From a virus (taxonomy: Duplodnaviria; Caudoviricetes), in the IMG/VR virus record IMGVR_UViG_3300020044_009484, positions 1 through 33,806 of that record: a DNA stretch of 33,806 bases. One strand, given 5' to 3'. The notes below the pieces were generated by a model that worked only from the letters and a program-made list of their open reading frames with translations, did not search any database and was not told the origin of the DNA. Position numbers and translations under genes: made by a program. Below, piece after piece: positions 17,736 through 33,806 of the stretch. Positions within the stretch are counted from its first letter, which is position 1; the number at the start of each line of letters is the position of its first letter.

Positions 17736-18476
17736 TTACTTCTCTGAGAGGTATTGGTTGTAAAGGTCTGGGTTTTGAGCAACCAGTCCGCTGATTGCCT
17801 GCTCGACGGTGTTGTACTCGCCTGCGTCAACTGCTGCCTTGGCAAGGCTTGTGACCTTGCCGAACGCATCACTTGTCGTGGAGCGGTTACTTGCGCCGAG
17901 TTCTGAGAAGATTGCTGCTGCTTCTTGCTGAGCGTTAACAGCCTCAAATGCCTTCTCGATTGTGGAAGCGAGGTCCGAGTTGATGTCTGCAACCTTGCGG
18001 AGTGCAACACCGAAAGCATCGGCTTCGATAGGAAGGTTGGACCATGCTGCTGCCTTAGCGACATACGAGCGGTCACGCTGGATTTCCTTCTCCTTGCGGA
18101 GTTCTTCACGAGCCGATTCTGCGTCTGCTGCTGCCTTGGCAAGCATTTCACGCACTGGCTCTGGGAGGGACTTGATGAGTGCCTCTTCTTCGTCGATAGG
18201 AGCGTCCTCTTCTGGGTCGTTCGCATCGGCTGCCTTCTGGAGGTCAGCGATTACTTCACGAGCCTTAGCAAGTTCCGCTTCCAATTCGACCATACGGTCG
18301 ATGTACTGCTCATTGATGTCTACGACGACATCATCTTCTGCATGTGCCACTGAGTCCTCCGTGGGGTTTGCGTTCTTCATGACTATCCAACCTTCTTCAA
18401 GATGGGCAGGGTGGTCTACACCGCTGGTCTCTAGCACCTTTAGTGCCACCATCTTTTTAGGCGTCTTTGCTGTCAT
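17736..18476 (-). CDS. Scaffold protein with N-terminal protease-like segment
   Basis: 246 aa, acidic coiled-coil with many hydrophobic-x-K-A/S sites. N-terminal LKVLETSGVDHPAH resembles the EvSlVdxPAn strand of HK97/XkdF proteases. Confidence 0.75.
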   Translation of the reverse strand: MTAKTPKKMVALKVLETSGVDHPAHLEEGWIVMKNANPTEDSVAHAEDDVVVDINEQYIDRMVELEAELAKAREVIADLQKAADANDPEEDAPIDEEEALIKSLPEPVREMLAKAAADAESAREELRKEKEIQRDRSYVAKAAAWSNLPIEADAFGVALRKVADINSDLASTIEKAFEAVNAQQEAAAIFSELGASNRSTTSDAFGKVTSLAKAAVDAGEYNTVEQAISGLVAQNPDLYNQYLSEK

Positions 18477-18562
18477 GTTTCCTCAAAGAAAAACCCGAAA
18501 ATCGAAAGCCTGTTGGCTGACGACCCTCGGGTCTCGGTTCTTTGAAGTGTATGTCATCGCAT
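18477..18562 (-). promoter_or_regulatory. Candidate late promoter (ATGCGAT-N4-TACACT) plus long RBS-occluding hairpin
   Basis: UCAAAGAA..AGACCCGAG GGUCG..AGCC-AACA-GGCU..CGAUU UUCGGGUUU UUCUUUGA stem that ends in the GAGG RBS of the scaffold gene. Confidence 0.55.
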
Positions 18563-18585
18563 ACACATGGCAACTGAAGTGGCGT

Positions 18586-19755
18586 TTAGTGGACTGGGTT
18601 GTTGATGTACTCGATTGTCACTTTTGTTGGGCGCTTGTAGAAGCCGAACGATTCATCTTCGCTGGACCGCTCAACGCTTGCGATGAAACTGACCTTGTCA
18701 CCTGTGTGGCAGTCACTGATTTTCGAAGGGCAGGTGCCCCAGACCTTGAAGCCTCGGTCATCCTTGACTGTCATCACCGAGCGGTAACCCCAATCGGTTT
18801 CCTTGAGGCTGACCGAGACGACTGTGCCTGTGATTTGGACCTTGTCGCCAGTGATTACTGGAGTCTTGACTTCAATCTCTCGGGCTGCCTGCTCTGCAAT
18901 CCAACCGAGGTGGCGGCGGTAGGCGGTGAGGAAAGAAGCGATGAGACCGTGGTACTTGCGCTCCGAGAGGTCGTACTTGAAAACCGTCTGAAGGTTTCTG
19001 AGGTACTCGCTGTCAGCCTCAAGGTCGAGAATCCACTGGATGGCTGCTTGTGCCTCGTCACGCTGCTCGGCGGTCATTGCTGGGACATCGTCGAAGCCTC
19101 GGTTCGACATCAGGAAGGCTGCCATCTGGTTCTTGGTGGCTGCACCTTCTTGGTCTGCCTTGCGGAAGCCCATGTGGTTGATGAGGGTGGCTGCTGCCAT
19201 CGCATAGTCGATGACGCTGTAGCGGCTGCCGCCACCACCGCCACGGCTACGACCGAACATCTCGTCATCGTCCAGAATCTCGTCGAGTGTCTCGTACCAG
19301 TGGAACTTGACCTTGTGACCGAGGAAGTCAGTCATGCAGGTCGAACCGACTTGAACTTCGGTGCCATCTTCGCTCTTGAAGAAGTAGGTGCGGAGGCGGA
19401 GGCGGTCAACATGGCACTGGTCGCATCGGCTGGTCACCGTGTTGAGATGAGTGAGGTCCATGTCTCGGAACTCGGGAGCAACTCGGACCATGTTCACGCC
19501 CTCGGCGATGTGGTCGATTGCCGCTACGAACTGATAGCCACCAGCAACGACTGGGTAGGCGTTGAGGATTTCGACATTGAACCAGACCTCGGTGACGAAG
19601 TCGTCGTCCTTTTGGGTGGTGGTTTCGAATCGGTCAAGGATGACAAGTTCAGGTGCTGGAGCGTCAATCTTTGCAGCGATTTTTGCGAGTTTGGCAACTG
19701 CCTCTTTGAGGTCATCGACCTTGTAGGCGAGGATTGTGGCTGTCATTGTGGTCAT
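18586..19755 (-). CDS. Hypothetical non-structural protein with Cys cluster and C-terminal OB-like domain
   Basis: 389 aa: CDQCH..R.RTY..QVGSTC; C-terminal GDKVQITGTV..VKDDRG..GDKVSF.A.V. Strong AAGGAGG RBS. Confidence 0.75.
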   Translation of the reverse strand: MTTMTATILAYKVDDLKEAVAKLAKIAAKIDAPAPELVILDRFETTTQKDDDFVTEVWFNVEILNAYPVVAGGYQFVAAIDHIAEGVNMVRVAPEFRDMDLTHLNTVTSRCDQCHVDRLRLRTYFFKSEDGTEVQVGSTCMTDFLGHKVKFHWYETLDEILDDDEMFGRSRGGGGGSRYSVIDYAMAAATLINHMGFRKADQEGAATKNQMAAFLMSNRGFDDVPAMTAEQRDEAQAAIQWILDLEADSEYLRNLQTVFKYDLSERKYHGLIASFLTAYRRHLGWIAEQAAREIEVKTPVITGDKVQITGTVVSVSLKETDWGYRSVMTVKDDRGFKVWGTCPSKISDCHTGDKVSFIASVERSSEDESFGFYKRPTKVTIEYINNPVH

Positions 19756-19776
19756 TGGGTTCCTCCTTGTACCTTC

Positions 19777-19805
19777 ATGTTACACGCTGCAGAATGTTCG
19801 GTCAA
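19777..19805 (-). promoter_or_regulatory. sigma70/SigA-like promoter
   Basis: TTGACC-N17-TAACAT just upstream of the RBS of 18586..19755. Confidence 0.65.
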
Positions 19806-19945
19806 GCCCTAAGCGGCGTAATCAACGGAACCATTCGCACAGGGTGATTTACCTTCCTGTCCTTGCGAGCGCAGATTGGCGGCTCCGACGGTTTGACCTC
19901 TGTCGAAAATTGCTGCCCGCACTTCGGGCACTTGTACTTGTGCAT
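19802..19945 (-). CDS. Small Zn-ribbon protein, 47 aa (not in ORF track)
   Basis: MHKYKCPKCGQQFSTEVKPSEPPICARKDRKVNHPVRMVPLITPLRA*; TAATG overlap with the upstream stop. Confidence 0.55.
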   Translation of the reverse strand: MHKYKCPKCGQQFSTEVKPSEPPICARKDRKVNHPVRMVPLITPLRA

Positions 19946-20196
19946 TATTGCTTCACCCATTCCATCTCGATGCAGTATTTCATGTCCTGCATAATCATGC
20001 CCCAGACCTCGCTCTTCGGAATGTCACAGAGGTCGTGACCGCTGAAGCCAGTGGTGCCATCTTCCAAGAGATAGCCCTCTGGAATTTCAATCCAGTAGTT
20101 GACACCGAACCAGTCGCTGGTTCTTCCCTCTACCTCAAGTTTGAGATTGTGGGCAGCGGCGAAGGCTTCGCACTTCGCTTTTGTTGATGTTGCCAT
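19945..20196 (-). CDS. Hypothetical protein (83 aa)
   Basis: The likely start is ATG 20196 (MATSTK) after AAGGAGG, with extended -10 TGGTAAACT upstream (~20223-20231). Confidence 0.65.
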   Translation of the reverse strand: MATSTKAKCEAFAAAHNLKLEVEGRTSDWFGVNYWIEIPEGYLLEDGTTGFSGHDLCDIPKSEVWGMIMQDMKYCIEMEWVKQ

Positions 20197-20335
20197 TGGG
20201 TCCTCCTTTCCCTTACATCTCCAGTTTACCAGATGGAAAATTGGACAAAGGCTAGGGGACCGTTGATTCATAAGGGTTTTGACTTCCCGACCTCGGGAAA
20301 CCCTTTGTTTGCAGGTGTGACCAAGTTCACACTAA

Positions 20336-20563
20336 CTAATTTTGGAACTCCTGAGCGCCGCCGTTGAAAACGATGGTTGGAGCCTTGGGGACACGACCTT
20401 TCGACGCCACAAGCCGCACATCGACCCTGTCATACGGGCAAGCCTTCAGCATGGCAATGAACGCTGGGTCCAGAAGTTGCGCTATCCACGACAAGACCAT
20501 TTCTGGTGGTTCACTGGCTGTCGTTATTTCGTGGTGCATCGCATCACATCTTACGAAAGGCAA
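20336..20563 (-). CDS. Hypothetical small protein
   Basis: 75 aa ORF co-directional with its neighbours, filling the gap; start uncertain. Confidence 0.5.
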   Translation of the reverse strand: MPFVRCDAMHHEITTASEPPEMVLSWIAQLLDPAFIAMLKACPYDRVDVRLVASKGRVPKAPTIVFNGGAQEFQN

Positions 20564-20579
20564 GATGCCTCAATCAAAC

Positions 20580-21269
20580 TCACGATTTAAGTTTGTCCAA
20601 CTTTCGAACGGCTTGTTCCAACATTGACGCCATGTTCTTAAACACTTGAGCGTCCGTGAACAACCTTGCCGACCGAGTCATAATCCATTTGCCATTGGCA
20701 TCTTTCTTGGGACCGCCCTCTGCAAGTTGCAAATCTGCGCCTTTTTTCTTCGTTCTGGTCGATAGTGACTTCAATCGTCGTGACTCTTTGACCAAATCAC
20801 CTCGGACCTTTTCAATTGGAATACCAAATTCCAAAGATTGTTGAGCCTCAGCAAATGTTTTGCGGGTTCCTTCAACAGCGGCTAAAGCGTCGCCCTTTTC
20901 AGCACCAAATCCTGCTTTGTCATAAGCCCGATTGATTGATGTCTCGTTGTCGGCAAAAAGAAAGTCGTCATCAAAAACGCTTGCGAAGCGAGACTTTTCT
21001 GGTTCGACGGCAGCACCGCCTGCAGCAGTGGTGCCACCAGATTCTGTTTGAGTTTTTTTGCCCCAACGAATTGACGCTGCGTAAGCCCCAGCCGCTGAAC
21101 GGTTACCACCGAACGATTGCTTGGCTTTAATCAACTCGGCAAGAGCGACGCTATTTGTCAAGCCGCTGATACTGCCAGCCTTTTGGACCTCTTGAACAAC
21201 AAACGCATAACCGAGGTCGGTCATGAAAGGACGAAGCGCCTCAAGAATAAGTTCGTCGGGCGTGGTCAT
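20580..21269 (-). CDS. RWG-tag protein: helical EVxKAG domain + tag + unknown payload
   Basis: LIKAKQSFGGNRSAAGAYAASIRWG at ~aa 46-70. Confidence 0.8.
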   Translation of the reverse strand: MTTPDELILEALRPFMTDLGYAFVVQEVQKAGSISGLTNSVALAELIKAKQSFGGNRSAAGAYAASIRWGKKTQTESGGTTAAGGAAVEPEKSRFASVFDDDFLFADNETSINRAYDKAGFGAEKGDALAAVEGTRKTFAEAQQSLEFGIPIEKVRGDLVKESRRLKSLSTRTKKKGADLQLAEGGPKKDANGKWIMTRSARLFTDAQVFKNMASMLEQAVRKLDKLKS

Positions 21270-21877
21270 TCTGCTTGTTGTGCTCTCTGCGTCAACGAAG
21301 TAGCAATCTTTCCAATCACCTCAGCAAACTGACCGACCGAAGGCGGAATGTTCTTTTTAGGCAAAACCAAGCCGATAGTCCTCGAAGCCAATCTCGCATC
21401 GCTCGCTGCTCGCTGCGCTGCAACAGGGGTGACTTGCGTAGCCCCAGCGTCGTCGGACCTCTTTGCGTTACCAACAAGGCGAACCACTTCCATCACTCGT
21501 TGATGCTCAGGATGGTCAGGTCCTAAATCTGCCAAGGCTTTACTGCCTGCGTCGTCTGCTTCTTTCCAGCCAGATGCCCCAACCGTCGAAGCGGTCCGTG
21601 AACCCAATGGCTTCGCATCGCCTGCTCCACGACCTCCCCATCGAACTCGGGCGGCGTAAGCGCCTGCTGCTGAACGGTTGCCGCCAAACGAAGTGCCGAC
21701 TCCAGCGACGATTGCTGCCGCTGTCTTTTCAAGCAATTCACGGGCAACACCTGTGGTGTTCATAATGCCGCCAGCCTTTTCGACCTCCTCATGGAGGAAA
21801 CCGATTTGCTGCTCAGTGAGAATCTGTGAAAGTGCTGGTGCCATGGCGTCCAACACATTTTTGTCTTTTTCGTTCAT
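21266..21877 (-). CDS. RWG-tag protein: helical EVxKAG domain + tag + unknown payload
   Basis: EEVEKAGG..SFGGNRSAAGAYAARVRWG; ATGA overlaps at both ends. Confidence 0.8.
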   Translation of the reverse strand: MNEKDKNVLDAMAPALSQILTEQQIGFLHEEVEKAGGIMNTTGVARELLEKTAAAIVAGVGTSFGGNRSAAGAYAARVRWGGRGAGDAKPLGSRTASTVGASGWKEADDAGSKALADLGPDHPEHQRVMEVVRLVGNAKRSDDAGATQVTPVAAQRAASDARLASRTIGLVLPKKNIPPSVGQFAEVIGKIATSLTQRAQQAE

Positions 21878-22458
21878 GCTGCCTCTGCGTAGAAAGCGTC
21901 TGTGTAATCAACAACTAACCGCTTGAGCATCTCGTGAAGGCGCTTTACAACGCCTTTGGCACCTTTTGCCTCTGCCAAGGGTCGAACACGGAATTCGGCT
22001 GCCGATGCAAGGTTCCAAGCACCAAACGCATCGCCAGTCACATCAGCCTTAGATGCAGCCTTGACCTCTTTCTGGGCAAGGACCAATTCTCGACCAACGG
22101 GAGAATCTGCACCTACAGCGGCGATTGCTGCCGTGTGAGTCTCGCCAATCTTTTCCAAGTTCATGGCTTCGCCAGCACCAGCGGGATTCGATGTTGCTAC
22201 TGCACCATCAGAAGTCCCTCCTTTGCCCCTCTTACCCCACCTGATGCTCGCTGCATAGGCTCCTGCGGCAGAACGGTTACCACCGAAAGATTGACGCTGT
22301 GCAGCCTTCTGAAGGACCGTCTGGGCGTAGCCCTGAACCTTGAGAACGCTGCCCGCTTTGCGGACCTCATCGATGACGCCAATCCATTCACGCTCGGAAA
22401 CGATTTCCAAGGCGGAATGGTGCAACGCATAAAGAAGTCGAAGGTCGGCGTTGTTCAT
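21874..22458 (-). CDS. RWG-tag protein: helical EVxKAG domain + tag + unknown payload
   Basis: DEVRKAGS..LQKAAQRQSFGGNRSAAGAYAASIRWG. Confidence 0.8.
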   Translation of the reverse strand: MNNADLRLLYALHHSALEIVSEREWIGVIDEVRKAGSVLKVQGYAQTVLQKAAQRQSFGGNRSAAGAYAASIRWGKRGKGGTSDGAVATSNPAGAGEAMNLEKIGETHTAAIAAVGADSPVGRELVLAQKEVKAASKADVTGDAFGAWNLASAAEFRVRPLAEAKGAKGVVKRLHEMLKRLVVDYTDAFYAEAA

Positions 22459-23111
22459 CAGATTTTCTTTGCAGCCTTAGCGATGATTTCGGCGGCGTAA
22501 CCAGTGGTGTGGCGGATTCCCCCAGCCTTAGTTACTTCGTCAAGGACGATTGTCCACTGAGCGTCGGTGAGGTCTGTGTGGCGGCGTAATTGCTTGAGAA
22601 TCATGTCGTCAGCCTGAGCCAAAACAGCCTTTTGGACGCCAACTGAAGAGCGCAACTGCCATGCCCATTTCTGGGTGATGTCGATACGACCAGCAATGAA
22701 ATCTGCGACGCCCTGCTCGTTTTCTGAGGTTGCCACATCAAAAGTGCGCTTCAAAGTGCTGATTAAACCGTCGATTTCACGGAGAAGGTCTGTTGCCATG
22801 GCTTGGGGGTCATTGGCTGGAGCGCCCTCGGCGATGGTTCGCATGGAGACCAATTCGCTCATGTGGAAAGGTGCGTCGGCTTGAATCTTCAGCATGTTTT
22901 CGGCAATGTCGTCGATTGAGCCGTAAATGTCCTCGTAGACCTCTGCAAATAAACCGTGATACTGCGAGAAGTCCTGACCCTTGACATTCCAGTGATACCC
23001 GTGAGCGTCGTGGTAGACGGTGTACGAGTCAGCAAGCAATGTACCGAGGGCGATTGACAGCGGAGATACCACTGCCTTGTGCATCGCATCGGGGGTTAAG
23101 GGTTCAGTCAT
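22458..23111 (-). CDS. dps: Dps/ferritin-like protein with C-terminal EVxKAG domain
   Basis: Dps signature HGYHWNVKG.DF.QYH.LF.E.YE..D.IAE and K.AWQLRS, plus a ~55-aa C-terminal extension. Confidence 0.85.
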   Translation of the reverse strand: MTEPLTPDAMHKAVVSPLSIALGTLLADSYTVYHDAHGYHWNVKGQDFSQYHGLFAEVYEDIYGSIDDIAENMLKIQADAPFHMSELVSMRTIAEGAPANDPQAMATDLLREIDGLISTLKRTFDVATSENEQGVADFIAGRIDITQKWAWQLRSSVGVQKAVLAQADDMILKQLRRHTDLTDAQWTIVLDEVTKAGGIRHTTGYAAEIIAKAAKKI

Positions 23112-23158
23112 GGTTTGATTCTTCTTTAGTTTCGAAAGTCCGACAAGCAGACGGTTCT

Positions 23159-23374
23159 TTAGTTAAACGATGGGATTTCGTAGAAAGAGCCTTCTGGGGC
23201 TGGGTTTTGCTTGACATCCTCAGCAATAACATCCCAAGCCTTTGACTCGTCCTCTGTTTGTAAATAAGCCTTCTCTTTAGGCAGATTGTTCAGAATCATG
23301 GCGTAAATCTGTTCGATTCGACGCCCTTCAACCTCAACCGATGCCCAAAAAGCAATCAATTCATCAGTAGTCAT
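23159..23374 (-). CDS. Small acidic protein, possible antitoxin of the zeta-like domain
   Basis: 71 aa, TAATG-coupled directly behind the zeta-like domain. Confidence 0.55.
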   Translation of the reverse strand: MTTDELIAFWASVEVEGRRIEQIYAMILNNLPKEKAYLQTEDESKAWDVIAEDVKQNPAPEGSFYEIPSFN

Positions 23375-25563
23375 TACTGTCCTTTCGCTAAGAAGTCGGC
23401 ATACGCCTTCTCATCATGTACAACTGTACTCTTGCCTTTGCCGCCCGAGAAAATCAGGCGTGGCGGTGTGCCAGATGTATCAAACAATGTTGCCGAATCG
23501 AATTGTCCAACAACATTAGGGAACACTTGAGAAACGCCTCGGTGTGTACCTACGGTAATTGATTCGTTGACATAACGACCCTGACCACGACCTGTCCATG
23601 TGCTTGGGTCTTTGGGGTTTTCGCCAGCCTTGGCGTATTTCTCACCGACGGGTAAACCACGAGTTCTTGCACGGTCCACAGCCACAGCCGTAGGTACAGT
23701 CGCATAAACGCCCGTGACCTTGTAATTATGAGATGCGCCCTCGGGGTCACGAGCATTGCGAACATTGTCGATTTTGCTTGTCATGCTCTTGGATGAGTTG
23801 TCGCCCGTTCCGTCAAGAATGACATTGAAACCGCTTTGAATAGCCCTGTCGTTTACAGCCTTAGAAAGCAACGACGATTCTTCGTGGACAGTTGACGCTG
23901 CTGCCATTTGACCAACACGACCGTCTACACCTACGCCGCCCTTAGAGTCTTTTCCGCCAACAAGTTGCTTGTATGGGGGAAGTTCTCCCTTGATTTCGTC
24001 TGCGTTGATAGCAACTGAGTGAGAGTCGGTGCCTTTGCCGCCACGAGAGTCTGAGCGGTTTGTACCGTTTCCAGCCCATTCTGGACCTGCGCCTTCGGCG
24101 AGCATCGATGACTTACCAGATGCTGGACCGCCGCCCATGAACACATACTCTGGCTGACCAGTTGGTGGTGTTTTGCGGCTGCCATCTTCGTTTACAAAGT
24201 GGCTGTCAATGATTTCGTCGTGGAGAGCGGCTCTTTGCGGCGAGATGTGCTTCCGCAATGTTTTGTAGTCAGGGTCGTGTTTTGTTGGGTCTAGCCCTTG
24301 AGAAACCATGTCTGCAGCCAAAGCATCGAAGTCACAATGTGTCTGCAGCGAAGCAAACTTTCCTTGCTGAGCCATACCGCCATCGGTGGCTGGCTCGCCG
24401 AATGGTCCCTTGCCAGCGGCTGCAACGCCCACAGCGGCTGCTTGCTGCTCACGCTTCGGGTCAGAAGCAACTCGACCCCAGCGAACCTGCGCTGCATAAG
24501 AACCCGCTGCTGAGCGATTGCCGCCAAATGTTTGCTTGGCTTTTGCTACTTCAGCAAACGCATACTGCGCTTTGTCGAAAGGCAATGATTCGAGACGCTT
24601 GGAACCTGTTGCCCAGAAACGCTCACCGTCAGTGCGGACAATGGCGACCGAGCCGTCATCACCGTACAAACCAGCGACATTGAACACCTTGTCGTTGAAT
24701 GATTTCGACAACGGGACAATCGCATACTTGACGCCATCGATGATGATTGACTTTGTCACCTCTGGTTCAGGCTCAATGATTTCGGCGGGTCCGCCGCTAA
24801 TGAGATTGCGGACAGCGTCCTTCAATTGGTCGGCAAGTGACACAGCCTCTTTGCGGGCTGTTGTGCGCTCGGTCTTTAACTTCTCTGCGTATTCGGCAGC
24901 AACGCTTGCGGTAGAGAAACGGTTCTTGACGACACCGCCAAAGCCGCTATCTGTTGGGATGCCCATTTCGACACGGGCTGCTGAGCCGCCGATAGAAAAG
25001 CCTGTGATTTTGTTTTCCTTGACCATGTCCCAAGCCCAGTCGTTCCACTTGACACCGAGGAAAACGGTGCCTGCTGGATAGGTCACTTCCTTGGAATCGC
25101 CCTGTGCCTTCTTCATGTTGAGGGTTACGGGGACAGGGAAAGACATGGCTTCGACCCATTCGCCAGCCACAATGTCTGTGTTGTGCTGTAGGCGGATGTC
25201 ACGGTCACCAAGGCGGACATAGTCCCAGAGAGCCTTCTGGAGTTCGTCGGCGTCTGACCATTCGCCGTGGGCATCTTCCTTGTTGGGGATGTACCAAGGA
25301 CCGAGGGTGAACTTTTGTTCTTCGTTGGCTTTGTGAATCAGGTCCATCGCATCGGCGGCGGGCTTCTTCTTCTTTTGAGGTGTTTTCCAGTTGACGCCGT
25401 CTACATGGACGCCGCTGGAGGTTGGGTCACCCTTTTCAACGCCTTCTTCTTCAGCGATTAGTTCGTCGATGACTGTCTGGACGGTTGGGTCCATGTCGTC
25501 CCACTGAAGGGTGCCGTCAATCCATGATTGGGCTTGGGCAACGAGGTTGTTAATTGTTGGCAT
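23374..25563 (-). CDS. XkdF-type prohead protease fused via RWG tag to a zeta-toxin-like P-loop kinase
   Basis: Protease ~24970-25330: EEQKFTLGPWY.P..DAHGE..LQH..GTVF.GV.W..W..VK..ITGFSIGG. Kinase: MGGGPASGKSS, INADEIK, HEESS, VILDGT, RA..R..GRYV. Confidence 0.88.
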   Translation of the reverse strand: MPTINNLVAQAQSWIDGTLQWDDMDPTVQTVIDELIAEEEGVEKGDPTSSGVHVDGVNWKTPQKKKKPAADAMDLIHKANEEQKFTLGPWYIPNKEDAHGEWSDADELQKALWDYVRLGDRDIRLQHNTDIVAGEWVEAMSFPVPVTLNMKKAQGDSKEVTYPAGTVFLGVKWNDWAWDMVKENKITGFSIGGSAARVEMGIPTDSGFGGVVKNRFSTASVAAEYAEKLKTERTTARKEAVSLADQLKDAVRNLISGGPAEIIEPEPEVTKSIIIDGVKYAIVPLSKSFNDKVFNVAGLYGDDGSVAIVRTDGERFWATGSKRLESLPFDKAQYAFAEVAKAKQTFGGNRSAAGSYAAQVRWGRVASDPKREQQAAAVGVAAAGKGPFGEPATDGGMAQQGKFASLQTHCDFDALAADMVSQGLDPTKHDPDYKTLRKHISPQRAALHDEIIDSHFVNEDGSRKTPPTGQPEYVFMGGGPASGKSSMLAEGAGPEWAGNGTNRSDSRGGKGTDSHSVAINADEIKGELPPYKQLVGGKDSKGGVGVDGRVGQMAAASTVHEESSLLSKAVNDRAIQSGFNVILDGTGDNSSKSMTSKIDNVRNARDPEGASHNYKVTGVYATVPTAVAVDRARTRGLPVGEKYAKAGENPKDPSTWTGRGQGRYVNESITVGTHRGVSQVFPNVVGQFDSATLFDTSGTPPRLIFSGGKGKSTVVHDEKAYADFLAKGQ

Positions 25564-26557
25564 CGAGGAACTCCTTCTGAGCAGCCAAGGCTAATTCGCA
25601 TGCTTCGGTGAATACCAGCGCCTTGCCCACGGGTGTGGTGTGGTCTGCGAAACCACGGCGTGAAATACCGTTTGCAATGCCCCATTTGTCCATCACATTC
25701 AAAAGTTGTTTTTGTGGGGCGTTGATTCTGATGATGGAGATTTGTGTTGGTCGCATCGTCGACCCGAGGGCTGCTGCAGCCCAGCGGTGATGTCCGTCCA
25801 TGACGAAACCGTCTGACGAAACGACAATTGAGCCAGTCGGGTCCGCTGAGAAGGCTTTTGCTCCCCGAGCGGATTCCCTGCCCAGAATTTCAGCGGATGA
25901 TTTGCCGTTGATGTCTTTCTGGGTTGGCTTGAGAGATGCTGGGTCGACCGATTCGTGAGAAACCGTTAGCCCTTGCTTTTTGACATCTGCAATGAATTCG
26001 GCTTTTCGAGCGGTTGGGACCTGCGGCATGTCCTCACGATTTTTTGTCCCTGCTATCGCATTGAAGAACAATGTGCCTGTGATTTGGACATCTGAAAGGT
26101 CCTCTGAGCCGTCGCCAGAAGCCAGACCTTGGACATACGACGGGACTTGGTCCTTGCCGACTGTGGTCAAAGGGGGCTTAGTGCCGCCCTTGCTACCCCA
26201 GCGAACCTGTGCCGCATAGGACGCTGCAGCAGAACGAGACCCAAATTGACGCTTTTGGATGTCATGTTCGATGAGGTCGCTCTTGATGACCCAGAGTTTG
26301 CAGAGAGCCATCGGCTCAATCTGCCCCTCAACGATTTCGCATGCCTGACCGCCTTCGTAGAACGAGCAGTTGGCACACATCAAACCCTCTTCGGCAAAAG
26401 GGTTTTCGTTTTCCGACATGTAATGGGCACCGTCTGGACCGCTTGACTGGTCAAACATGCCAAACGCATCGACGATGATTTCAAGCGACTGATACAGAGC
26501 CTGTTGGCGGGGTGTCAGGTCGTCGATTTCGTCCACTGCTGTATCGTACCGACCCAA
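25550..26557 (-). CDS. HiPIP-like Cys4 domain + RWG tag + ParB/Srx-like domain
   Basis: CANCSFY..ACEIVEG.I.P.ALCKLW; then R.DMPQV, LKPTQ, IVVSSDGFVMDGHHRWAA. Start uncertain (GTG ~26536 possible). Confidence 0.78.
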   Translation of the reverse strand: MGRYDTAVDEIDDLTPRQQALYQSLEIIVDAFGMFDQSSGPDGAHYMSENENPFAEEGLMCANCSFYEGGQACEIVEGQIEPMALCKLWVIKSDLIEHDIQKRQFGSRSAAASYAAQVRWGSKGGTKPPLTTVGKDQVPSYVQGLASGDGSEDLSDVQITGTLFFNAIAGTKNREDMPQVPTARKAEFIADVKKQGLTVSHESVDPASLKPTQKDINGKSSAEILGRESARGAKAFSADPTGSIVVSSDGFVMDGHHRWAAAALGSTMRPTQISIIRINAPQKQLLNVMDKWGIANGISRRGFADHTTPVGKALVFTEACELALAAQKEFLDANN

Positions 26558-26584
26558 CTATGGTCAAGCCGTACTACAGGTCGG

Positions 26585-27250
26585 TCAAGCCATCGGCTTG
26601 TTTTCAAGAACATAAAACTTGGCTGCAAAATTCATCATTGCCGATTGAATCTTGTCGACGATTGCACCAACCGCTGGAAAATCTCTTCCGTATTGCCCTT
26701 GGGTTCCAAATTTCCAGCCGATGTCATCTGCCTTGTTTTGTATGTTGCCAACTCTTTTGACCGCTGAATCACCAGAATTACGAAAATTTCCGACATGATT
26801 GTAAAGTTCGTGAGCCTTATCGCCATTGACTTTCGCAGGGTTCACATGTGCCGTCATAATCTCTTTATGGACAATTGGAGAAATTTCTTTCAAAGCGTCC
26901 AATTCTGGTTTTATTTCGTCTTTGAAGTCTTGACCCATTGGGACTCCACGCTCTGCTGCTGTCGGAGGTCGTAATCCACCATTTTCCTGTTCGACAGCCA
27001 ATTCTCCGTTTGACATGACATGCACTGGAGAGTCAGTAATAAGTCCATGAGTTGACGATGTAGAACCTGATTCTGCTTGGCGAGCGCCCCAACGAGCACG
27101 AGCGGCATAGCGTCCAGCCTCTGAACGGTTACCTCCAAAGGATTGTGCCTTCTCAAGGTGCAACGCATCCTCGGCAGACATCTCATTGCCATCCTCGTCG
27201 ATGAAGGTCAGACCCATCAGTCCGTCGTATTGAAAGTTTTCTTTGCTCAT
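26585..27250 (-). CDS. RWG-tag protein with unknown payload
   Basis: Short acidic leader, then LEKAQSFGGNRSEAGRYAARARWG. Confidence 0.8.
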   Translation of the reverse strand: MSKENFQYDGLMGLTFIDEDGNEMSAEDALHLEKAQSFGGNRSEAGRYAARARWGARQAESGSTSSTHGLITDSPVHVMSNGELAVEQENGGLRPPTAAERGVPMGQDFKDEIKPELDALKEISPIVHKEIMTAHVNPAKVNGDKAHELYNHVGNFRNSGDSAVKRVGNIQNKADDIGWKFGTQGQYGRDFPAVGAIVDKIQSAMMNFAAKFYVLENKPMA

Positions 27251-29577
27251 TCCATTACCACCTTAATGACTTTGGTGTAGTTCGGTCTGTTCCGACCGCC
27301 GAATTGGTTTGGTTCATCACTGATTGCCCAAACTTTGAACTTTGCCTTACGAGGTAATAGTACCTCGTGTTCCGTCTTGTGCATACTTCTTTTACCCAAG
27401 ATAGGGTTCATCGGCAAAACTTTTGTGCCTTTTCTGACCGCAATTTCGAAGCGGATGCCAGTTATTCCGCCCCACTGTTGGGCAAGAGGCAAGGATGTTG
27501 AGGTTGATGTGAATCCCTCGTCAGAGAATGATTCACCGACTTTCAAAAGAGAGAAGAATCGAACCGCTCTTTCGCCGTCTTTATTTCGACCAAAATCCAC
27601 TCCACGGTGAACAATCAAGTCTGTGGGCAGAGGTACGGCTGCTTCGAAAGCACGGTCCACACCAACCGCTGCAGCGGTTCTGTCGTTGCCGTCACGAAGT
27701 TCAGCATTGATTACCTTGCCCCTCATTTGGTATGCGACAACGGAGTCTCGATTTTTCATGGACATGATGCCGTCAGAACCCTCTGGGTACATCGCATCGA
27801 GAATCTGGTTGGCGTCATCTCTGCTACGAAATGGCACTGTTGACGGGTCGAACGCTGGGGTTTCTTCCCCTGCTGTGTTCCCCCAGCGAATTCTGGCGGC
27901 GTATTGGGCTGCTTCTGACCGTGAACCGAAACGACGCTCACGGGCTTTTTCCACTCCGCCAGCGGGTTCAAGGACAAAGGTCAAGGTGAGACCTTCGCCA
28001 GAGATGTTTTGCCACTCGCCGTATTCCCGTTTGACTAATCGCATACGGGTGTTGCGGGGGAGAAGAACTTCTTTCTCTCCTGCGTAGGAATGTTTGGTGC
28101 CAATCATTGTGTTGATGGGCAAGACTTTGCTGCCTTCTGGACAGACAACTTTGAATCTGATTCGGCTTCTAGCGCCGAATTCATCGCCGATTTTGGTGCT
28201 GGTGGAAGTTGAGCCGAACGCTGGGTCGCTAAAGGATTGTCCAACTTTCATTCCGTCAAAGAAGGCAATTGTTGCTTTTCCGTCGTCGGTGAAGTTTTTG
28301 ACATCCAAGCCTCGGTGCAGGACTATTGCCTTGGTTAGTGGTTCTGCAGCCTCAAAAGCGGAATCAATTTGTCCAACCGTTGAATAAGGTCGAATGACTA
28401 CGCCTTCTTTGGCTTGTCCTCGGAGAGCGCCATTGATTGCCCAGCCTTCATCGGTGTATTCCCTGATGGCTGCTTCATGACCTGATGTGAATGGGTAATC
28501 CTCAGAATCAGAGTATGGATACAAACTGTCTAGGTATTGCTCCATCTCGTTGGAGGTGACTTCTCGTACTGAGAGGGGGTCAAACTCTGGTGCTTTCTTA
28601 CCCCAGCGGACCTGTGCGGCATAACGAGCAGCGGCGGAACGGTCCCCGCCAAACGACTGCTTAGCCTTGTCCAGTTGCTCTGATTTGACTGCTGCTGCAA
28701 AACCAGAACCGTCATCAGTTAGCGCCGTTGAGTGAACAATCTTTTTCCCTTCGAAAGTCATTTTCTCCGCTGCGGTCAGCATCGCCGTGGCGATACCTTT
28801 GCGTTTCCAACCGTCAGTGACAGCAATGTGGGTGATTTCAACCTCTCCAGTTGGCTTTCCAACAGTCAAATTTTTACTTCTGCCGTGCAGTTTCAGTTCG
28901 TTCGCATCGAGATACCCAATCTTTTGCCCATTGACATAAGCGTCAACTCGGGCACTTTGAACTCCAAGTCTGTATTCAGGCGTGAAATTTGGGTCATCAG
29001 CCAAAGCGGGCGGTAACCAATTTGGTTCTTTATCATAGTCTCTGTTTCCAGAAGCACGAAGTTGGACCTTGTCGCCATCTTCTGTAATGAATTCAAAATC
29101 GCCGCTTCTAACTTGCTCGTTTCTTTCGCCTTTTCGCTCATAAAATTCGCCAACTTGTGTAATGACTGCTCGGCGAGATTCAGACGGAGATTCTGTTTTT
29201 GTTCGATTACCCCAGCGAACTTGGGCAGCGTGACGACCTGCAGCAGAACGGTCCCCACCAAAAGAAGCCTTCTCGATGTCGTTCGCATCAGGGAAAATCA
29301 AATCGTCGCCGACGGTTACATCTGACTGTGGATTGAGGATGGTCTGGAAATCGGCGACCAGAAACACGGCTTCAGAAATAACGGCGTAAGCGCCCGATTC
29401 GTTATCCAGACTGGGTTTCACCATGATTACGGCTGAGCCGCACGGCAAGTTGTAGCCCTCAGCAATTAGGCGGTCGATGATTGGTTTGACCGTCGGGATG
29501 GTGCATCGCATGGACCCGTTGGACCATTCGGCTTCGTGGAAAACGCCGTCAACTTGGAACTCCCAGATAAGACTCAT
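27247..29577 (-). CDS. Polyprotein: GNAT acetyltransferase + two VIP2/Alt-like ADP-ribosyltransferases, each preceded by an RWG tag
   Basis: GNAT: IAV..GWKRKGIATAML. ART1: INGALRG/LHRG/STST/EKEVLLPR. ART2: INAELR/VHRG/STST/EHEVLLPR (R-STS-ExE). Confidence 0.88.
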   Translation of the reverse strand: MSLIWEFQVDGVFHEAEWSNGSMRCTIPTVKPIIDRLIAEGYNLPCGSAVIMVKPSLDNESGAYAVISEAVFLVADFQTILNPQSDVTVGDDLIFPDANDIEKASFGGDRSAAGRHAAQVRWGNRTKTESPSESRRAVITQVGEFYERKGERNEQVRSGDFEFITEDGDKVQLRASGNRDYDKEPNWLPPALADDPNFTPEYRLGVQSARVDAYVNGQKIGYLDANELKLHGRSKNLTVGKPTGEVEITHIAVTDGWKRKGIATAMLTAAEKMTFEGKKIVHSTALTDDGSGFAAAVKSEQLDKAKQSFGGDRSAAARYAAQVRWGKKAPEFDPLSVREVTSNEMEQYLDSLYPYSDSEDYPFTSGHEAAIREYTDEGWAINGALRGQAKEGVVIRPYSTVGQIDSAFEAAEPLTKAIVLHRGLDVKNFTDDGKATIAFFDGMKVGQSFSDPAFGSTSTSTKIGDEFGARSRIRFKVVCPEGSKVLPINTMIGTKHSYAGEKEVLLPRNTRMRLVKREYGEWQNISGEGLTLTFVLEPAGGVEKARERRFGSRSEAAQYAARIRWGNTAGEETPAFDPSTVPFRSRDDANQILDAMYPEGSDGIMSMKNRDSVVAYQMRGKVINAELRDGNDRTAAAVGVDRAFEAAVPLPTDLIVHRGVDFGRNKDGERAVRFFSLLKVGESFSDEGFTSTSTSLPLAQQWGGITGIRFEIAVRKGTKVLPMNPILGKRSMHKTEHEVLLPRKAKFKVWAISDEPNQFGGRNRPNYTKVIKVVME

Positions 29578-32500
29578 GCTGACGCCATCACTCCCAGAAC
29601 GAACGCCATGTGGTCGTTATCGAAATTGTCTCTGTTGCCGCCAAGCACTTGTTCGAATCCTGTGGTCATAATTTCAAAGGCTGGGTATCGGCTGTTATTT
29701 TCTTGGTCTCGGAAAAGACCCGTTTTGCGTGTTGCCCTGTCATAGCGGCGTCCGCTGTACAGATTCGAGAATGTGTCTCGGTCAAGTTCCAGTGTTTGCC
29801 CGCCTACGGTTTTTGCTCCGACACGAGTTTCACGCTTTGTGGACCTGACACGAGATGTTAAAGATGTGTTCTTTCCGCTGATGTCAAAACCTGTTGTTCT
29901 GTGGGTGATGAACGCCACTTCAAGGGCTGCGATAGCGGGGCGGTAGTGAGTGACGAAGTGTTGGGTTTCGTGTCCAATCACTCGAAGATTGTCTTTTTCT
30001 CCTCTTCCGTTGATGGTTCCCATTGTCGGGATGTTGATGACGGGTTGTGTTACAGAACCTTGCGGGATGCTGAATGAGCCGTTACTGACGCCGACATGAG
30101 AGTTCAGTTGAACATTTGAACCTTTTGTGGCGTTGGTCCAATCGGTTGGCATGACTTTGCCGACTGTTGAGAACGCTCCAAGGGTGTCTTGAAACGCCAC
30201 AGGGCTGGTGGCAAGGGTGTGTGGGGCTGTTGGGGCGAAGTCGAAAGTGCCGCCACATGGTCGAACTTCGGCGACTACCTGCTGCATTGCTTTCGCATAA
30301 GCGTCGTGCAGTTGCTCTTTGTCTGTTTTGTCCAGAGTGCCTGCAGCGATTTGTTGTTTGACACGGTCGACTGCTTCGATGTTCATTTTGTCGCCCAGAG
30401 CAATCGCACGGTCGTGAAGGTCTGCCACTTTTGGTGATGGAATCATCTCTTCGTTGGCGGTGTTGATTTGAATGTCGCCTTTTTCGTCATTCCAAGCGCC
30501 TTTTGCCTTCGGATTTCTGATGCTCATTGGGCTGGACCGTTGCATGTTTTCGAAACTGACCGATTGATTCAGCAGAAACATTTCTTTGCGTAGCGCCTCG
30601 GCTTCCTCTCGCATCGCCTTCATGTGAGGCTTTTCAGCGGGTGTATCACTAGATGTTGTGCCCCAGCGGATACGGGCTGCGTATTGAGCGGCTTCGGCAC
30701 GAGTAGAGAACTTGCGCTTACGACCCTTCTCAACGACCAAAGAATCAACGGCATCCCAGATACGAGCAACAGTGTTATTCAGGTCAACCGTCGACGATTT
30801 AGCAACATCTACTGGGTCAGGAAAAATTTTGAACTTGCCTGCTCCGTCTGTTCCGTCGCCAAGGATGACAATTGGAATTCCTTGTTTTTTAGCGGCTTTA
30901 ACTAACGCTCTGGACGGTTTTGTGCCAGAAAAGGCAATGTAGGAAATGTCCGACAATTTCAAACCGCCGTGGATTTGGGCTTCGGCATAACGAACAGGCT
31001 TGCCTTGTGAAACCTGACTCAGCCATTCACTGGAGTTGGTTGGAGAAGATTCATCTGTCCTCACCCGCAATTGACCCGAGGTAATTCGTCCGTTTACAGG
31101 TGAAGCCGCACGAACATTCTTCAGCGAATCAAAATTGGTGAAAGTGGAGCGGTCACCAACTTGTGGTTTTGCAACAAATTGAACGGTTCCGTACTGACTT
31201 GAACCGTTTGCCCCGCCGTGTTGAATACCCAAAGGATGAAGGCTCGCATAGATAGGGCGACGAGAAGGCTCAGCCAGAGGGTGAACACCAAAACTTGCTG
31301 CTTCGTGGACCGCTCGCATACCAAGGCTTAGTGTTCCACCACTCTGCTTTGTTTCGAACTGCGTGGTGATGTGCCCAGTTTCCAAAATGCTGACAGCGGT
31401 CTTTTCGCTACGAGTCAAAGCAATTTTCTTCATTGGAGAGGCAACTAGAAGTTTTGTGTCGGCAATTGCCTCTGCAGAGCGACCCGCTTCTCTAATTTCC
31501 ATGTGACGCCCCATCGTCGCATTTGCCATTGCGTTAGCAAGATTCTGTCTGTTCTGTTCTTGCTGACCGTTGTAGGTGTAATGATTATCGTAAACATTTG
31601 ATGGATGATTCGGTGGCTTTATTTTCTCTGGCTCAAAAGCAGCCATCAGAGAAAAAGCGTCTCCTGAATCTTTGCTATTGGCATTGGTCTGGTCAGTATC
31701 GAAGCCTCTTTTTTCCAGTGATTTGATTGTTTCTGGAGACAAGCCATCCGAGTTGAGATGTCCGAGGTAATAGGCATTTAGTTCTTTGTGCAAGCGGTAG
31801 TAATCACTTTGTGCGTTTCCAGAATCAATCACCATGGAACCGTTCTCAAGGGCAATTAGACCCTCTTGAAGGTGTGGCGGCATGCCCTCAAAAGTAAATG
31901 GGATGTACGGTGCCCCTGTTGCGATGGCGACATTGACATCCATCGTTGGAGGGGGCAGTGCATCTAAAGCATCGTTTCGTGTTGTCGCATCAGTGCTTCG
32001 GTTGCCCCAACGAATTTGAGCGGCATGACGCCCAGCCTCAGACCGTGAAGCAAATCGGCGTTCACGAGTTTTTTCTGTTGGTTCTGCTGGTTCGGCAACA
32101 ATGTCCCACGGTTGCGAGAACATCGAATAAATGTTGAGAACTGGTATTTCTTTACCAAGTTCGTCGATGACATGACCTGACGGGAATGTTTCCTCAAGCG
32201 GCGTTCCTGCTCGCAGGGTCGTGAACCCTGTTTGATACAAAGAGCGTTCGCCGTCGGTGGCAATCAATCGCATCATGCCGCTCTTGGCAACCTCGGCAGG
32301 TTCAGGAAGAATTTTCATCTTGCCTGTTCGGTCCCTTGGTTCTGTGCCAATCGAAATTACGGGGATGCCATGTTTTGCGGCTCTCTGGACCAAATCACTT
32401 GTTCGTCTGTTTGCCACGATGTAAGCAACATCAGAAAGTCTTACGCCACCATGGATTTGCGCTTCCGAATACTCCGTTCGGTCACCACGCCTAATTTTCC

Positions 32501-33806
32501 CAACTTTGTCCGAGGGATGAATTGGAGCATCTTTGGGGAACTTGCTGTATGGGTGTGCTTGACCCTTGTTGATTGGTCCTCGTACTGGCGAAGGATTGCG
32601 ATTTTGCCCAAGAGAATCAACAACCGAAAATGTTGAGCGGTCCGAAACTTGTGGTTTCATTACCAACTGAATAGTTCCGTATTGGCTTGCTCCCGTGGCA
32701 TACGGGTGTTGAACACCAACAGGATGAAGCGTCGCATAAACAGGTCGACGGTCAGGCAATGTTGCTGGGTGTGTGCCGTAGGCAACGGCTTCATGGGCTG
32801 CTCGACCTTTAGGGTTGTATGCCCCTTGGCTGCTTCTAGTTTCAAACTGAGTGGTGATTCGACCTCCAGTAAGAATTGCTGAGGCACCTGCTTCGGTGAC
32901 CGTCATTGCAATTTTCATTTCTGGGTGAGATACCAAATCTTTGGTGTCTTTTAGAGCCTCTGCCTCTTGACCGATGAGATACTGATTTTCTCTGTGACGA
33001 ATAACTGTTTGACGAGCCATGCTGCTGGCAAGGTCAAGGCGCTCACTAGCACGGTCTTGGTCTGCTTGTGTTCCTGTATTCGGCTTGAATTGCTGATAAT
33101 GCTTACCGAATTTTCTCATTTCGGCTTGATTCTCTGGAGAAATGTTGTCTGGACTCAACACTTTTGAGTAGTAAGCAGTGAGTTTTGCTTCAAGCACCAG
33201 TTCTTCGGTGTACGGCAGACTGCTCGTTTCTGTTTTAAGCAGACCCTCTTGAATGTCTGGGGGGAGACTTTCAAACAAAAGCGGTTTGTATGGAGCGCCA
33301 GTCGTAATTGCCTCGTTGACATCGTCGGTCGGCTCCATTGGAACACCATTCGATGCTGCAGAAGCGTTCGCATTGGGAGTTGTAGTCCCCCATCGAATTC
33401 GTGCAGCGTATCGAGCGGCTTCTGCTCTCGAAGCGAATTGCCTCTTACGACCTTTTCCCAATGGTTCGTCTGGAGTATCAATGATTTCCCAAGAATCATC
33501 TCTAAACATCGCATAGATGTTCTTAACTGGGATAATCACGCCCTCTTCGTCAACAACATGACCTGTTGGGACGGTTTCCTCAAGGTCCGTGCCTTGTTCG
33601 TCGTGAATCTTTTGCAGACTCGTGAATTTGTTCGCTAGGTTCTGCGCTTTCGCCGTGGACTCTTTCAGTGCGTCCACGCCCTCCCATCGCCGCCCGGTGA
33701 ACTTTGCGGAATTGAACTTCCAAAACTTCGCGAGCGGCAGAGCGACCGCCTGAGTAGTCAACGCCATCTTCAACCACTCCGCGAAGATGCGGCGCTCAGC
33801 AGTAGA
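29574..33806 (-). CDS. Large polyprotein: two DUF3626-like domains + HExxH domain, each preceded by an RWG tag (5' end beyond window)
   Basis: The frame stays open past TTG 33773 to the window edge (STAERRIFAEWL). Duplicated TQFET..S.G / RP.YA.L / QYG / Y.EAQIHGG domain; GHETQH..YSGR.Y..FEIMTTGFE at the C-terminus. Confidence 0.8.
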   Translation of the reverse strand, partial: STAERRIFAEWLKMALTTQAVALPLAKFWKFNSAKFTGRRWEGVDALKESTAKAQNLANKFTSLQKIHDEQGTDLEETVPTGHVVDEEGVIIPVKNIYAMFRDDSWEIIDTPDEPLGKGRKRQFASRAEAARYAARIRWGTTTPNANASAASNGVPMEPTDDVNEAITTGAPYKPLLFESLPPDIQEGLLKTETSSLPYTEELVLEAKLTAYYSKVLSPDNISPENQAEMRKFGKHYQQFKPNTGTQADQDRASERLDLASSMARQTVIRHRENQYLIGQEAEALKDTKDLVSHPEMKIAMTVTEAGASAILTGGRITTQFETRSSQGAYNPKGRAAHEAVAYGTHPATLPDRRPVYATLHPVGVQHPYATGASQYGTIQLVMKPQVSDRSTFSVVDSLGQNRNPSPVRGPINKGQAHPYSKFPKDAPIHPSDKVGKIRRGDRTEYSEAQIHGGVRLSDVAYIVANRRTSDLVQRAAKHGIPVISIGTEPRDRTGKMKILPEPAEVAKSGMMRLIATDGERSLYQTGFTTLRAGTPLEETFPSGHVIDELGKEIPVLNIYSMFSQPWDIVAEPAEPTEKTRERRFASRSEAGRHAAQIRWGNRSTDATTRNDALDALPPPTMDVNVAIATGAPYIPFTFEGMPPHLQEGLIALENGSMVIDSGNAQSDYYRLHKELNAYYLGHLNSDGLSPETIKSLEKRGFDTDQTNANSKDSGDAFSLMAAFEPEKIKPPNHPSNVYDNHYTYNGQQEQNRQNLANAMANATMGRHMEIREAGRSAEAIADTKLLVASPMKKIALTRSEKTAVSILETGHITTQFETKQSGGTLSLGMRAVHEAASFGVHPLAEPSRRPIYASLHPLGIQHGGANGSSQYGTVQFVAKPQVGDRSTFTNFDSLKNVRAASPVNGRITSGQLRVRTDESSPTNSSEWLSQVSQGKPVRYAEAQIHGGLKLSDISYIAFSGTKPSRALVKAAKKQGIPIVILGDGTDGAGKFKIFPDPVDVAKSSTVDLNNTVARIWDAVDSLVVEKGRKRKFSTRAEAAQYAARIRWGTTSSDTPAEKPHMKAMREEAEALRKEMFLLNQSVSFENMQRSSPMSIRNPKAKGAWNDEKGDIQINTANEEMIPSPKVADLHDRAIALGDKMNIEAVDRVKQQIAAGTLDKTDKEQLHDAYAKAMQQVVAEVRPCGGTFDFAPTAPHTLATSPVAFQDTLGAFSTVGKVMPTDWTNATKGSNVQLNSHVGVSNGSFSIPQGSVTQPVINIPTMGTINGRGEKDNLRVIGHETQHFVTHYRPAIAALEVAFITHRTTGFDISGKNTSLTSRVRSTKRETRVGAKTVGGQTLELDRDTFSNLYSGRRYDRATRKTGLFRDQENNSRYPAFEIMTTGFEQVLGGNRDNFDNDHMAFVLGVMASA

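Follow-up and report, generated by a model that had tools for sequence, protein, structure and literature searches.

The window analysed here is a whole phage contig of 33.8 kb (33,806 nucleotides; Caudoviricetes; IMG/VR record IMGVR_UViG_3300020044_009484), in which the structural genes and all features described below lie on the minus strand. The motif [V/I/L/M/F]-x-K|[A/G/S] is dense in the putative scaffold of this phage and recurs at domain borders in nine proteins of its head module, where it precedes most copies of a short repeated sequence, RxxAGxYAAxxRW (the tag). We consider it probable that the motif is the cut signal of the XkdF-type prohead protease embedded in one of the nine proteins, which would degrade the scaffold together with the acidic leaders and free each enzyme module within the head, in most cases with the basic tag at its new N-terminus. 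The motif pattern itself is real, specific for lysine and kept in relatives. An original prediction, made from the letters of the window, had proposed these sites as the cut code of the embedded protease. All 17 border motifs and five scaffold motifs that it named are present on the minus strand, and its central claim is supported at the level of sequence by a lysine-specific enrichment across the protease family with controls, by conservation without exchange of Lys for Arg, and by the order of site before tag.

The lysine motif in the window and in related phages

The tag has the form F-x(2,3)-R-[SA]-x-A-[AG]-x-[YH]-A-A-x-x-R-W-G and occurs in 12 copies in eight open reading frames (ORFs). 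The strict form of the motif, [VILM]-x-K|[ASG], precedes 9 of the 12 tags at a distance of no more than about 12 residues, compared with 5.9% of 3535 background windows (p = 1.5e-9), and a tenth tag has only a looser site, IQK-R; the near-universal site before tags claimed by the original prediction thus holds for most tags and fails for two. The 12 tags, being copies of a single repeat, cannot be counted as separate events, and the independent support for the motif comes from borders without a tag, from the scaffold and from other phages. The ten head-module ORFs contain 39 motifs against 15.4 in shuffled sequences (p = 3e-4), while the 25 other ORFs contain 18 against 15.2 (p = 0.27). The 246-residue protein that we take for the scaffold, judging from its position, acidity and conserved synteny (17736..18476), carries seven sites (K71, K81, K102, K114, K141, K175 and K213) where 0.98–0.99 would be expected (0.98 in the shuffles). 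The predicted enrichment over the compositional background was thereby borne out. When all 20 residues were compared at P1, Lys stood out in the cargo ORFs (2.2-fold) and in the scaffold (7-fold); Trp was likewise high in the cargo ORFs, which we attribute to the R-W-G held by the tag itself.

For 12 XkdF phages (the window, contig L074 and ten cultured phages), the motif was also counted in the scaffold or protease-scaffold protein, the scaffold label being our own where the record says hypothetical. Eleven of the 12 proteins are enriched for the lysine motif at p < 0.03, gp5 of the Bacillus phage 0105phi7-2 with as many as 15 motifs versus 1.98 expected, and the cultured phages with site-rich scaffolds span Arthrobacter, Microbacterium, Rhizobium, Bacillus and Lactococcus hosts. 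None of nine controls is enriched (T4 gp22, T4 gp68, lambda Nu3, Mu gpI, P2 gpO, P22 gp8, T7 gp9 and two proteases of Mu-like prophages). T4 gp22 instead shows the Glu motif (10 versus 2.55 expected), in keeping with the T4 cleavage rule L/I-X-E (PMC9026906), so a specificity already known is recovered by the method. The scaffold of the window has one Glu motif versus 1.75 expected, unlike a substrate of a T4-type cut after Glu. Among 120 scaffold homologs, each with 6–9 lysine motifs, the total reaches 865 versus 122 expected (7.1-fold), whereas the corresponding Arg motif is found 99 times versus 76 (1.3-fold), the Glu motif 229 times versus 245 (0.9-fold) and the Gln motif at 2.6-fold. Arg occupies 0–4% of the rows in the site columns; several other basic columns mix Lys and Arg, and four lysines outside the sites are also nearly free of Arg.

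The order of site and tag is the same in other genomes. Multi-tag relatives were found among viral contigs by a DNA pattern, giving 68 distinct tags from 17 sources with the 12 of the window included. A strict site lies at most 16 residues upstream in 57 of these tags (31 of 37 by linker cluster) and within 19 residues downstream in none, and the sequence carries a net charge of −2.3 over the 20 residues before the site and +3.8 over the 30 behind it. The tag is present in 110 of 119 long protease homologs, whose 131 distinct tags have a strict site upstream in 88 cases and downstream in one, [VILMF]xK in 126 and the Arg form in 7. A tag profile built mostly without the site region matched 321 among 1.84 billion proteins. 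In the best 150 of the 321, with seven tags left out as too close to the N-terminus, 262 tags had a strict site upstream in 204 cases and downstream in four, and [VILMF]xK[ASG] in 220 against the Arg form in four. P3 is taken by L, V, I, M or F and P2 by any residue; of 248 residues at P1′, 181 are Ala and 39 are Gly, and the spacing from Lys to tag ranges over 2–14 residues. The limits originally set to the motif are therefore to be adjusted, with Phe admitted at P3 and mostly Ala at P1′. When 56 proteins found by the profile were compared with Pfam, the cargo included ART, GNAT, DUF3626, DRAT, HNH and metallopeptidase-like domains, and two proteins were fused to MuF.

The tag has no family of note in Pfam and no match in the cultured phage records. 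A search of the ESM Atlas with leader and tag stayed below a score of 0.9 (DUF6291), which is a lead only. Among the matches listed in a DNA pattern scan of metagenomes, most were chance ones in GC-rich sequence, and only L117, L136 and L142 were used. A 321-residue protein, P0444, to which the tag profile gives a weak match, is made up of RSEAGR..AEARWG repeats and has no match in Pfam; we presume that these repeats resemble the KGG-type repeats of stress proteins. In two Mu-like prophages (L031:8354-10471 and L033:8468-10510) the portal protein carries a tag-like helix near its end, between an acidic linker and a basic C-terminal domain. This helix lacks a preceding Lys site, and the protease of these prophages is Mu gpI-like; the tag can thus be separated from the site.

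Conservation and module exchange also point to the sites as borders. Lysines within the motif make up 5 of 175 in cargo cores versus 27 of 90 elsewhere. Conservation among aligned relatives is 115 of 160 for border sites and 6 of 34 for the five matches inside cargo domains, and Lys is replaced by Arg at 2 of 185 site positions versus 120 of 1244 other lysines. These contrasts are partly circular because we knew the sites when drawing the borders from family matches and repeats. Module exchange is less circular evidence. Relatives gain or lose whole domains between sites, and in contigs from four of 20 freshwater or lake runs 10 of the 29 joint ends listed fall within 10 nucleotides of a site lysine, for which 5.1% of positions qualify (p ~1e-6). 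One lake-contig joint removes the GNAT module from K103 to K304 of the 776-residue ORF. Two of the joint sites, Dps K12 and DUF3626 K497, have no tag, so homology between tags alone does not explain the joints. At the protein level, 16 of 31 alignment ends lie in site or tag windows, which cover 22% of the residues.

The motif might instead be left uncut and serve as a structural or binding element, for example the end of an amphipathic helix, of the tag cassette and of the helical scaffold, having spread by copying. Site and tag do travel as one repeat, scaffold and tape measure protein are both rich in Ala and Lys (the latter with nine matches), and the four Arg-poor lysines outside the sites behave as the site lysines do; yet the distance between Lys and tag is variable, P2 is unconstrained, Arg does not substitute for Lys, and untagged borders are marked as well. 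Since none of the helical scaffolds from P22, T7, lambda, P2, Mu and T4 shows enrichment, and since the portal tails of the Mu-like prophages, whose protease is of another type, carry a tag-like helix without the site, we regard an uncut motif as quite unlikely.

The XkdF-type protease and its known counterparts

The protease domain occupies residues 74–199 of the 729-residue ORF (24967..25344) and matches PF14550 with 50 bits versus a cut-off of 24, over positions 3–126 of the 126 in the profile. His127 is found in 121 of 121 aligned rows and Ser190 in all 118 rows with a residue at that position, suggesting that these two invariant residues would be catalytic in a serine protease of the procapsid. 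A model built on the homolog alignment reached a predicted local distance difference test (pLDDT) score of 73, and a single-sequence model (pLDDT 45) was discarded. The top two matches of the alignment-based model among 48,161 chains were T4 gp21 (5jbl_A; Z 7.3, root-mean-square deviation 3.0, 94 residues aligned) and the varicella-zoster protease (1vzv_A; Z 5.4, root-mean-square deviation 3.1, 89 aligned), both with Z-scores below 8, a range where only a common arrangement may be matched. Foldseek with the better model gave nothing at E ≤ 0.001, and neither the protease profile nor the tag profile matched PDB sequences. At the N-terminal border of the protease, Lys is present in 110 of 120 homologs and a strict site in 94, with P3 and P2 varying freely. 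In 107 of 116 longer homologs a site stands 3–9 residues before the protease core, behind an acidic leader. In Ottawa and Laroye the XkdF protease (L015:9332-10471 and L016:13834-14955) lies behind another domain, and the records annotate an RNA ligase or aldolase. The passages of PMC7824862 describe XkdF as a likely head-processing peptidase and give no cleavage rule. Neither an XkdF cleavage motif nor this tag was stated in the literature searched, which left aside supplements and most subscription papers; supplements on polyvalent proteins may list the tag.

Cleavage could alternatively be the work of another enzyme, either a host protease or the HExxH domain (HExxH at residue 1268) at the end of the 1399-residue cargo protein, possibly after injection. 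This metallopeptidase-like domain (29577-30641) is conserved in relatives, and according to a proposal by Iyer et al. (PMC5512222), polyvalent proteins process themselves through domains of this kind. It has no match among 50,697 phage genome records, however, although cultured XkdF phages have site-rich scaffolds, and the motif tracks the XkdF family across hosts; this alternative therefore appears very unlikely, and the XkdF protease very likely cuts after Lys at exposed sites.

As read here, the system works like that of T4 gp21 with gp22, the internal proteins and Alt, and differs in P1 and in the topology of the tag. On this reading, both have a short motif with a hydrophobic P3, many sites in the scaffold and propeptides removed from packaged cargo that includes an ADP-ribosyltransferase (PMC9026906), and gp21 is, with a moderate score, the top structural match of the modelled protease. 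The protease of the window has no sequence match to gp21, its P1 would be Lys rather than Glu, and its cargo consists of multi-enzyme polyproteins with internal sites. The capsid targeting sequence of T4 is removed, whereas the tag lies behind the site and would be retained (204 sites upstream versus 4 downstream of 262 tags); the separate leader module before the site could play part of the role of the removed T4 signal. The proteases phiKZ gp175 and SPN3US gp245 likewise process many head proteins, including propeptides with several sites (PMC10052503). They differ by their specificity for Glu (A-X-E in ejection proteins) and by cutting off terminal propeptides rather than splitting enzyme modules, and the passages of the same source contain no repeated retained tag.

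The phage polyvalent proteins described by Iyer et al. in 2017 (PMC5512222) also string together ART, GNAT, kinase and HExxH domains in a head-gene context and with a mosaic architecture. In the window the cargo genes sit upstream of scaffold and capsid, in contig L035 the cargo comes directly after a gp7/MuF-like gene and a gene that we presume to encode the portal because it resembles that of Laroye, and relatives fuse tagged cargo to MuF. In contrast to our reading, PMC5512222 and PMC9503650 attribute processing chiefly to metallopeptidase domains, and neither a cleavage motif nor a tag is stated in the passages of the former.

Lys before a small residue is also known from proteases of other families. 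HK97 gp4 cuts at K103/S104 (PMC10275583), within T-F-N-K|S, and T5 pb11, with its 159-residue propeptide (as stated in PMC10219371), has R-H-L-K|A; both scaffold domains are enriched for the motif (3 versus 0.63 and 5 versus 0.90). Their proteases differ in having no XkdF profile match and no motif enrichment, and the substrates are capsid propeptides instead of enzyme polyproteins. The original prediction had cited the Lys|Ser cut of the Listeria phage A511 as its precedent. The annotated mature capsid protein Cps does start after Lys23, at Ser24, but the context is D-A-L-K|S with Ala at P3, gp84 has no XkdF profile match, and neither gp84 nor gp85 is enriched, so A511 was rejected as an exact precedent. 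A closer one is 0105phi7-2, which shares with Laroye and Ottawa an XkdF-family protease and a site-rich scaffold (gp5/gp6 in 0105phi7-2), the latter two also with a site just before the protease domain; all three differ from the window in their lack of a tag match, and no cleavage rule is given for them in the literature consulted. In 0105phi7-2, with its XkdF-type gp5, the capsid K11 lies within I-E-K|A, and in virion mass spectrometry residues 1–10 were absent and many spectra covered residues 12–38, although the data were obtained with trypsin and the authors leave the status of K11 open (PMC10219371). HFTV1 was not kept as a precedent, since residue 100 is not Lys and the protease, with a P2 gpO-like annotation, has no XkdF profile match.

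The capsid proteins of the Lactococcus phage phismq86, RHph_Y1_11 and Mufasa8 also carry the motif, at residues 16, 9 and 18, respectively, whereas that of Laroye has none in its first 125 residues. The major capsid protein of the window (16332..17309) is without the motif near its N-terminus and has one internal match (K231). A search for a solved capsid near enough to read a mature N-terminus gave a single distant chain (3bjq) for the capsid protein of the window, and none for 0105phi7-2 or HSTV-1.

The cargo proteins and their setting

The largest cargo polyprotein, of 1399 residues (29574..33773), has three tags, two DUF3626-like domains and the C-terminal HExxH domain. Its site L-G-K107|G (33450..33461), kept in 8 of 8 aligned relatives, precedes tag 1 (33387..33437). 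V-A-K497|S (32280..32291) ends the first DUF3626-like module with no tag directly after it and has a joint at 32279 in lake contigs. Tag 2 (32004..32054) follows TEK-TR instead of a strict site, and the relative L035 has LEK|G at the same place. V-A-K992|S (30795..30806) ends the second DUF3626-like module, and V-E-K1016|G with tag 3 (30660..30734) comes next.

The 776-residue polyprotein (27247..29577) consists of an acidic leader followed by three tagged modules, one GNAT and two Alt/VIP2-like ADP-ribosyltransferase (ART) domains. They begin with I-E-K103|A and tag 4 (29209..29277; joint end 29270), with L-D-K304|A and tag 5 (28600..28674; joint ends 28662 and 28673), and with V-E-K544|A and tag 6 (27880..27954; joint end 27943). 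The site AVK-SE predicted after GNAT is present just upstream of K304 (A-V-K298|S), with an Ala at P3 that puts it outside the strict motif.

The 221-residue ORF (26585..27250) has an acidic leader of 34 residues, L-E-K34|A (27146-27157), tag 7 (27086-27139) and a payload without known family. In the 335-residue ORF (25550..26557), an acidic Cys-rich leader is followed by V-I-K92|S, I-Q-K102|R, tag 8 (26195-26245), a PHROG 2859 domain (function unknown) and V-G-K312|A. We take this domain to be ParB-like from its motif; the site VGK-AL that had been predicted to follow ParB is there, while the ParB label has no support from Pfam. The leader (26282-26557), with a CxxC...C...C pattern, is also found N-terminal to the protease in P0359, and presumably resembles a small iron-sulfur domain. 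The protease-cargo fusion of 729 residues (23374..25563) comprises an acidic leader, I-H-K78|A, the XkdF protease, V-A-K341|A, tag 9 (24475-24528), a zeta-toxin-like kinase and L-A-K727|G. A Dps/ferritin-like domain (22458..23111; joint end 23075) lies between M-H-K12|A and V-Q-K161|A without any tag; if loaded, it may shield packaged DNA from iron or oxidation.

A module of about 45 residues with one or two sites is shared by four ORFs, at the C-terminus of the Dps ORF and at the N-terminus of three ORFs with basic payloads. These are the 194-residue ORF (21874..22458; sites K34 and K51, tag 10 at 22234-22287), the 203-residue ORF (21266..21877; V-E-K34|A and a degenerate second site, LEK-T, tag 11 at 21635-21688) and the 229-residue ORF (20580..21269; sites K30 and K48, tag 12 at 21060-21113, joint end 21122). 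The copies (21126-21269, 21730-21877, 22306-22458 and 22461-22630) have counterparts in L074 and L059. On the discarded side of the last site, this leader module is a candidate for a removable capsid-loading signal. The original prediction that each payload is freed with the tag at its new N-terminus agrees with the many tags that follow a site, but not with the two tags lacking a near site, and a tag on every payload was rejected in view of the Dps ORF.

The composition of this cargo bears on a further possibility, that the protease cuts only to clear the head, with the tagged proteins being a disposable core or the tag a mere packaging signal, and no active enzyme being delivered. T4 gp22, gp67 and gp68 are indeed cut to pieces that mostly leave the head (PMC9026906), and several payloads are small basic proteins without known family. 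Other payloads are chains of effectors, namely GNAT with two ART, two DUF3626 with HExxH, and protease with zeta-like kinase, in which the ART domains retain the STS and ExE motifs and the kinase retains Walker A. With motifs scarce in cargo cores and lost there in relatives, and with the tag on the cargo side of the site, mere clearance seems unlikely compared with the release of enzyme modules.

The nine cargo-like ORFs occupy 33773-20580 in reading order and are followed by a few small genes, the putative scaffold, a decoration-like gene, the major capsid protein and the tail genes. The closest cultured head modules are those of the Arthrobacter phages Laroye and Ottawa and the Microbacterium phage ValentiniPuff, which, together with a gene with a transglycosylase-like domain (PF06737; 9616-10182) amid the head-tail genes, suggests an actinobacterial host. 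Between cargo genes and scaffold (18586-20563) lie genes that look non-structural, encoding a PHROG 2319 protein, a zinc ribbon and small ORFs; lysine motifs are few in all of them, and such genes are similarly placed in Laroye, Ottawa and ValentiniPuff. An ORF running off the contig end (1-1239) has the look of a host-surface protein: its start resembles a signal peptide, and it contains a globular domain and a long linker rich in Thr and Pro. The last 211 bases (33596-33806) have no match in the relatives fetched, which begin the 1399-residue ORF otherwise, so the true start of this ORF is uncertain; these bases are possibly a contig-end artefact or a genuine variant. No RNA run was among the sequencing runs listed with this DNA; those listed were freshwater or lake metagenomes, in which it had a small share.

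Proposed processing and delivery

It is somewhat more likely than not that the cargo proteins enter the procapsid alongside the scaffold, probably via their acidic leaders, including the shared module. Once the protease cuts, the scaffold would break into pieces of 10–71 residues and the acidic leaders would be shed, whereas matches inside folded cargo domains would be protected. The 776-residue protein would yield fragments starting at residues 104, 305 and 545, with the tag 7–9 residues from each new end. The two strict matches in the protease core would fit self-destruction after maturation. The freed modules, of 15–50 kDa, would likely remain in the head and be delivered with the DNA. Least secure is the role of the retained tag, which, judged by charge and position, might be a basic helix that, with roughly even chances, holds the module on packaged DNA or routes it to the portal.

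Several observations weigh against this reading, in addition to the moderate fold scores, the partly circular border contrasts and the tryptic data on 0105phi7-2 mentioned above. Tag 2 of the 1399-residue ORF and the tag of the 203-residue ORF are without a close site, the nearest strict site of the latter lying 34 residues before the Arg of the tag. Calculated per lysine, the head ORFs surpass the other ORFs only about twofold (39 of 281 versus 18 of 240, p = 0.024), so the enrichment over other genes that the original prediction anticipated exists but is modest. The tape measure protein (4549-7548) has 9 matches versus 5.4 expected (p = 0.085), and its cutting by the same protease is possible but unsupported. 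Because five strict matches lie within cargo cores and two within the protease core, the motif alone is insufficient. The Dps ORF has no tag, and HHTV-2 gp38 is the protein of the family test that is not enriched. The tags share ancestry, some of the best 150 proteins were apparently used for the profile, and the protease is in the same chain in only 5 of the best 150. In SPN3US, about 80% of the head proteins are uncleaved (PMC10052503), so a location in the head does not imply cutting.

It is already known from T4, phiKZ and HK97 that a prohead protease can cut scaffold and cargo at a short motif. The lysine motif predicts a specificity of XkdF prohead proteases that can be tested, also in the cultured phages named above, and proposes how large polyvalent proteins are split into pieces small enough for the head. 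The coincidence of module joints with cut sites would explain how domains are swapped freely. More tentatively, the three-part cassette of an acidic removable leader, a Lys cut site and the retained tag might be a processing signal, a delivery address and a recombination joint at once. Any enzyme placed behind it might then be loaded, released and injected separately, the payload being reshuffled across hundreds of protein clusters, and the tag might be an undescribed signal for riding on DNA or for routing to the portal, with a topology opposite to that of the T4 capsid targeting sequence. Should the tag be a delivery signal, there would be, besides the T4 route, a second natural way to load capsids with proteins.

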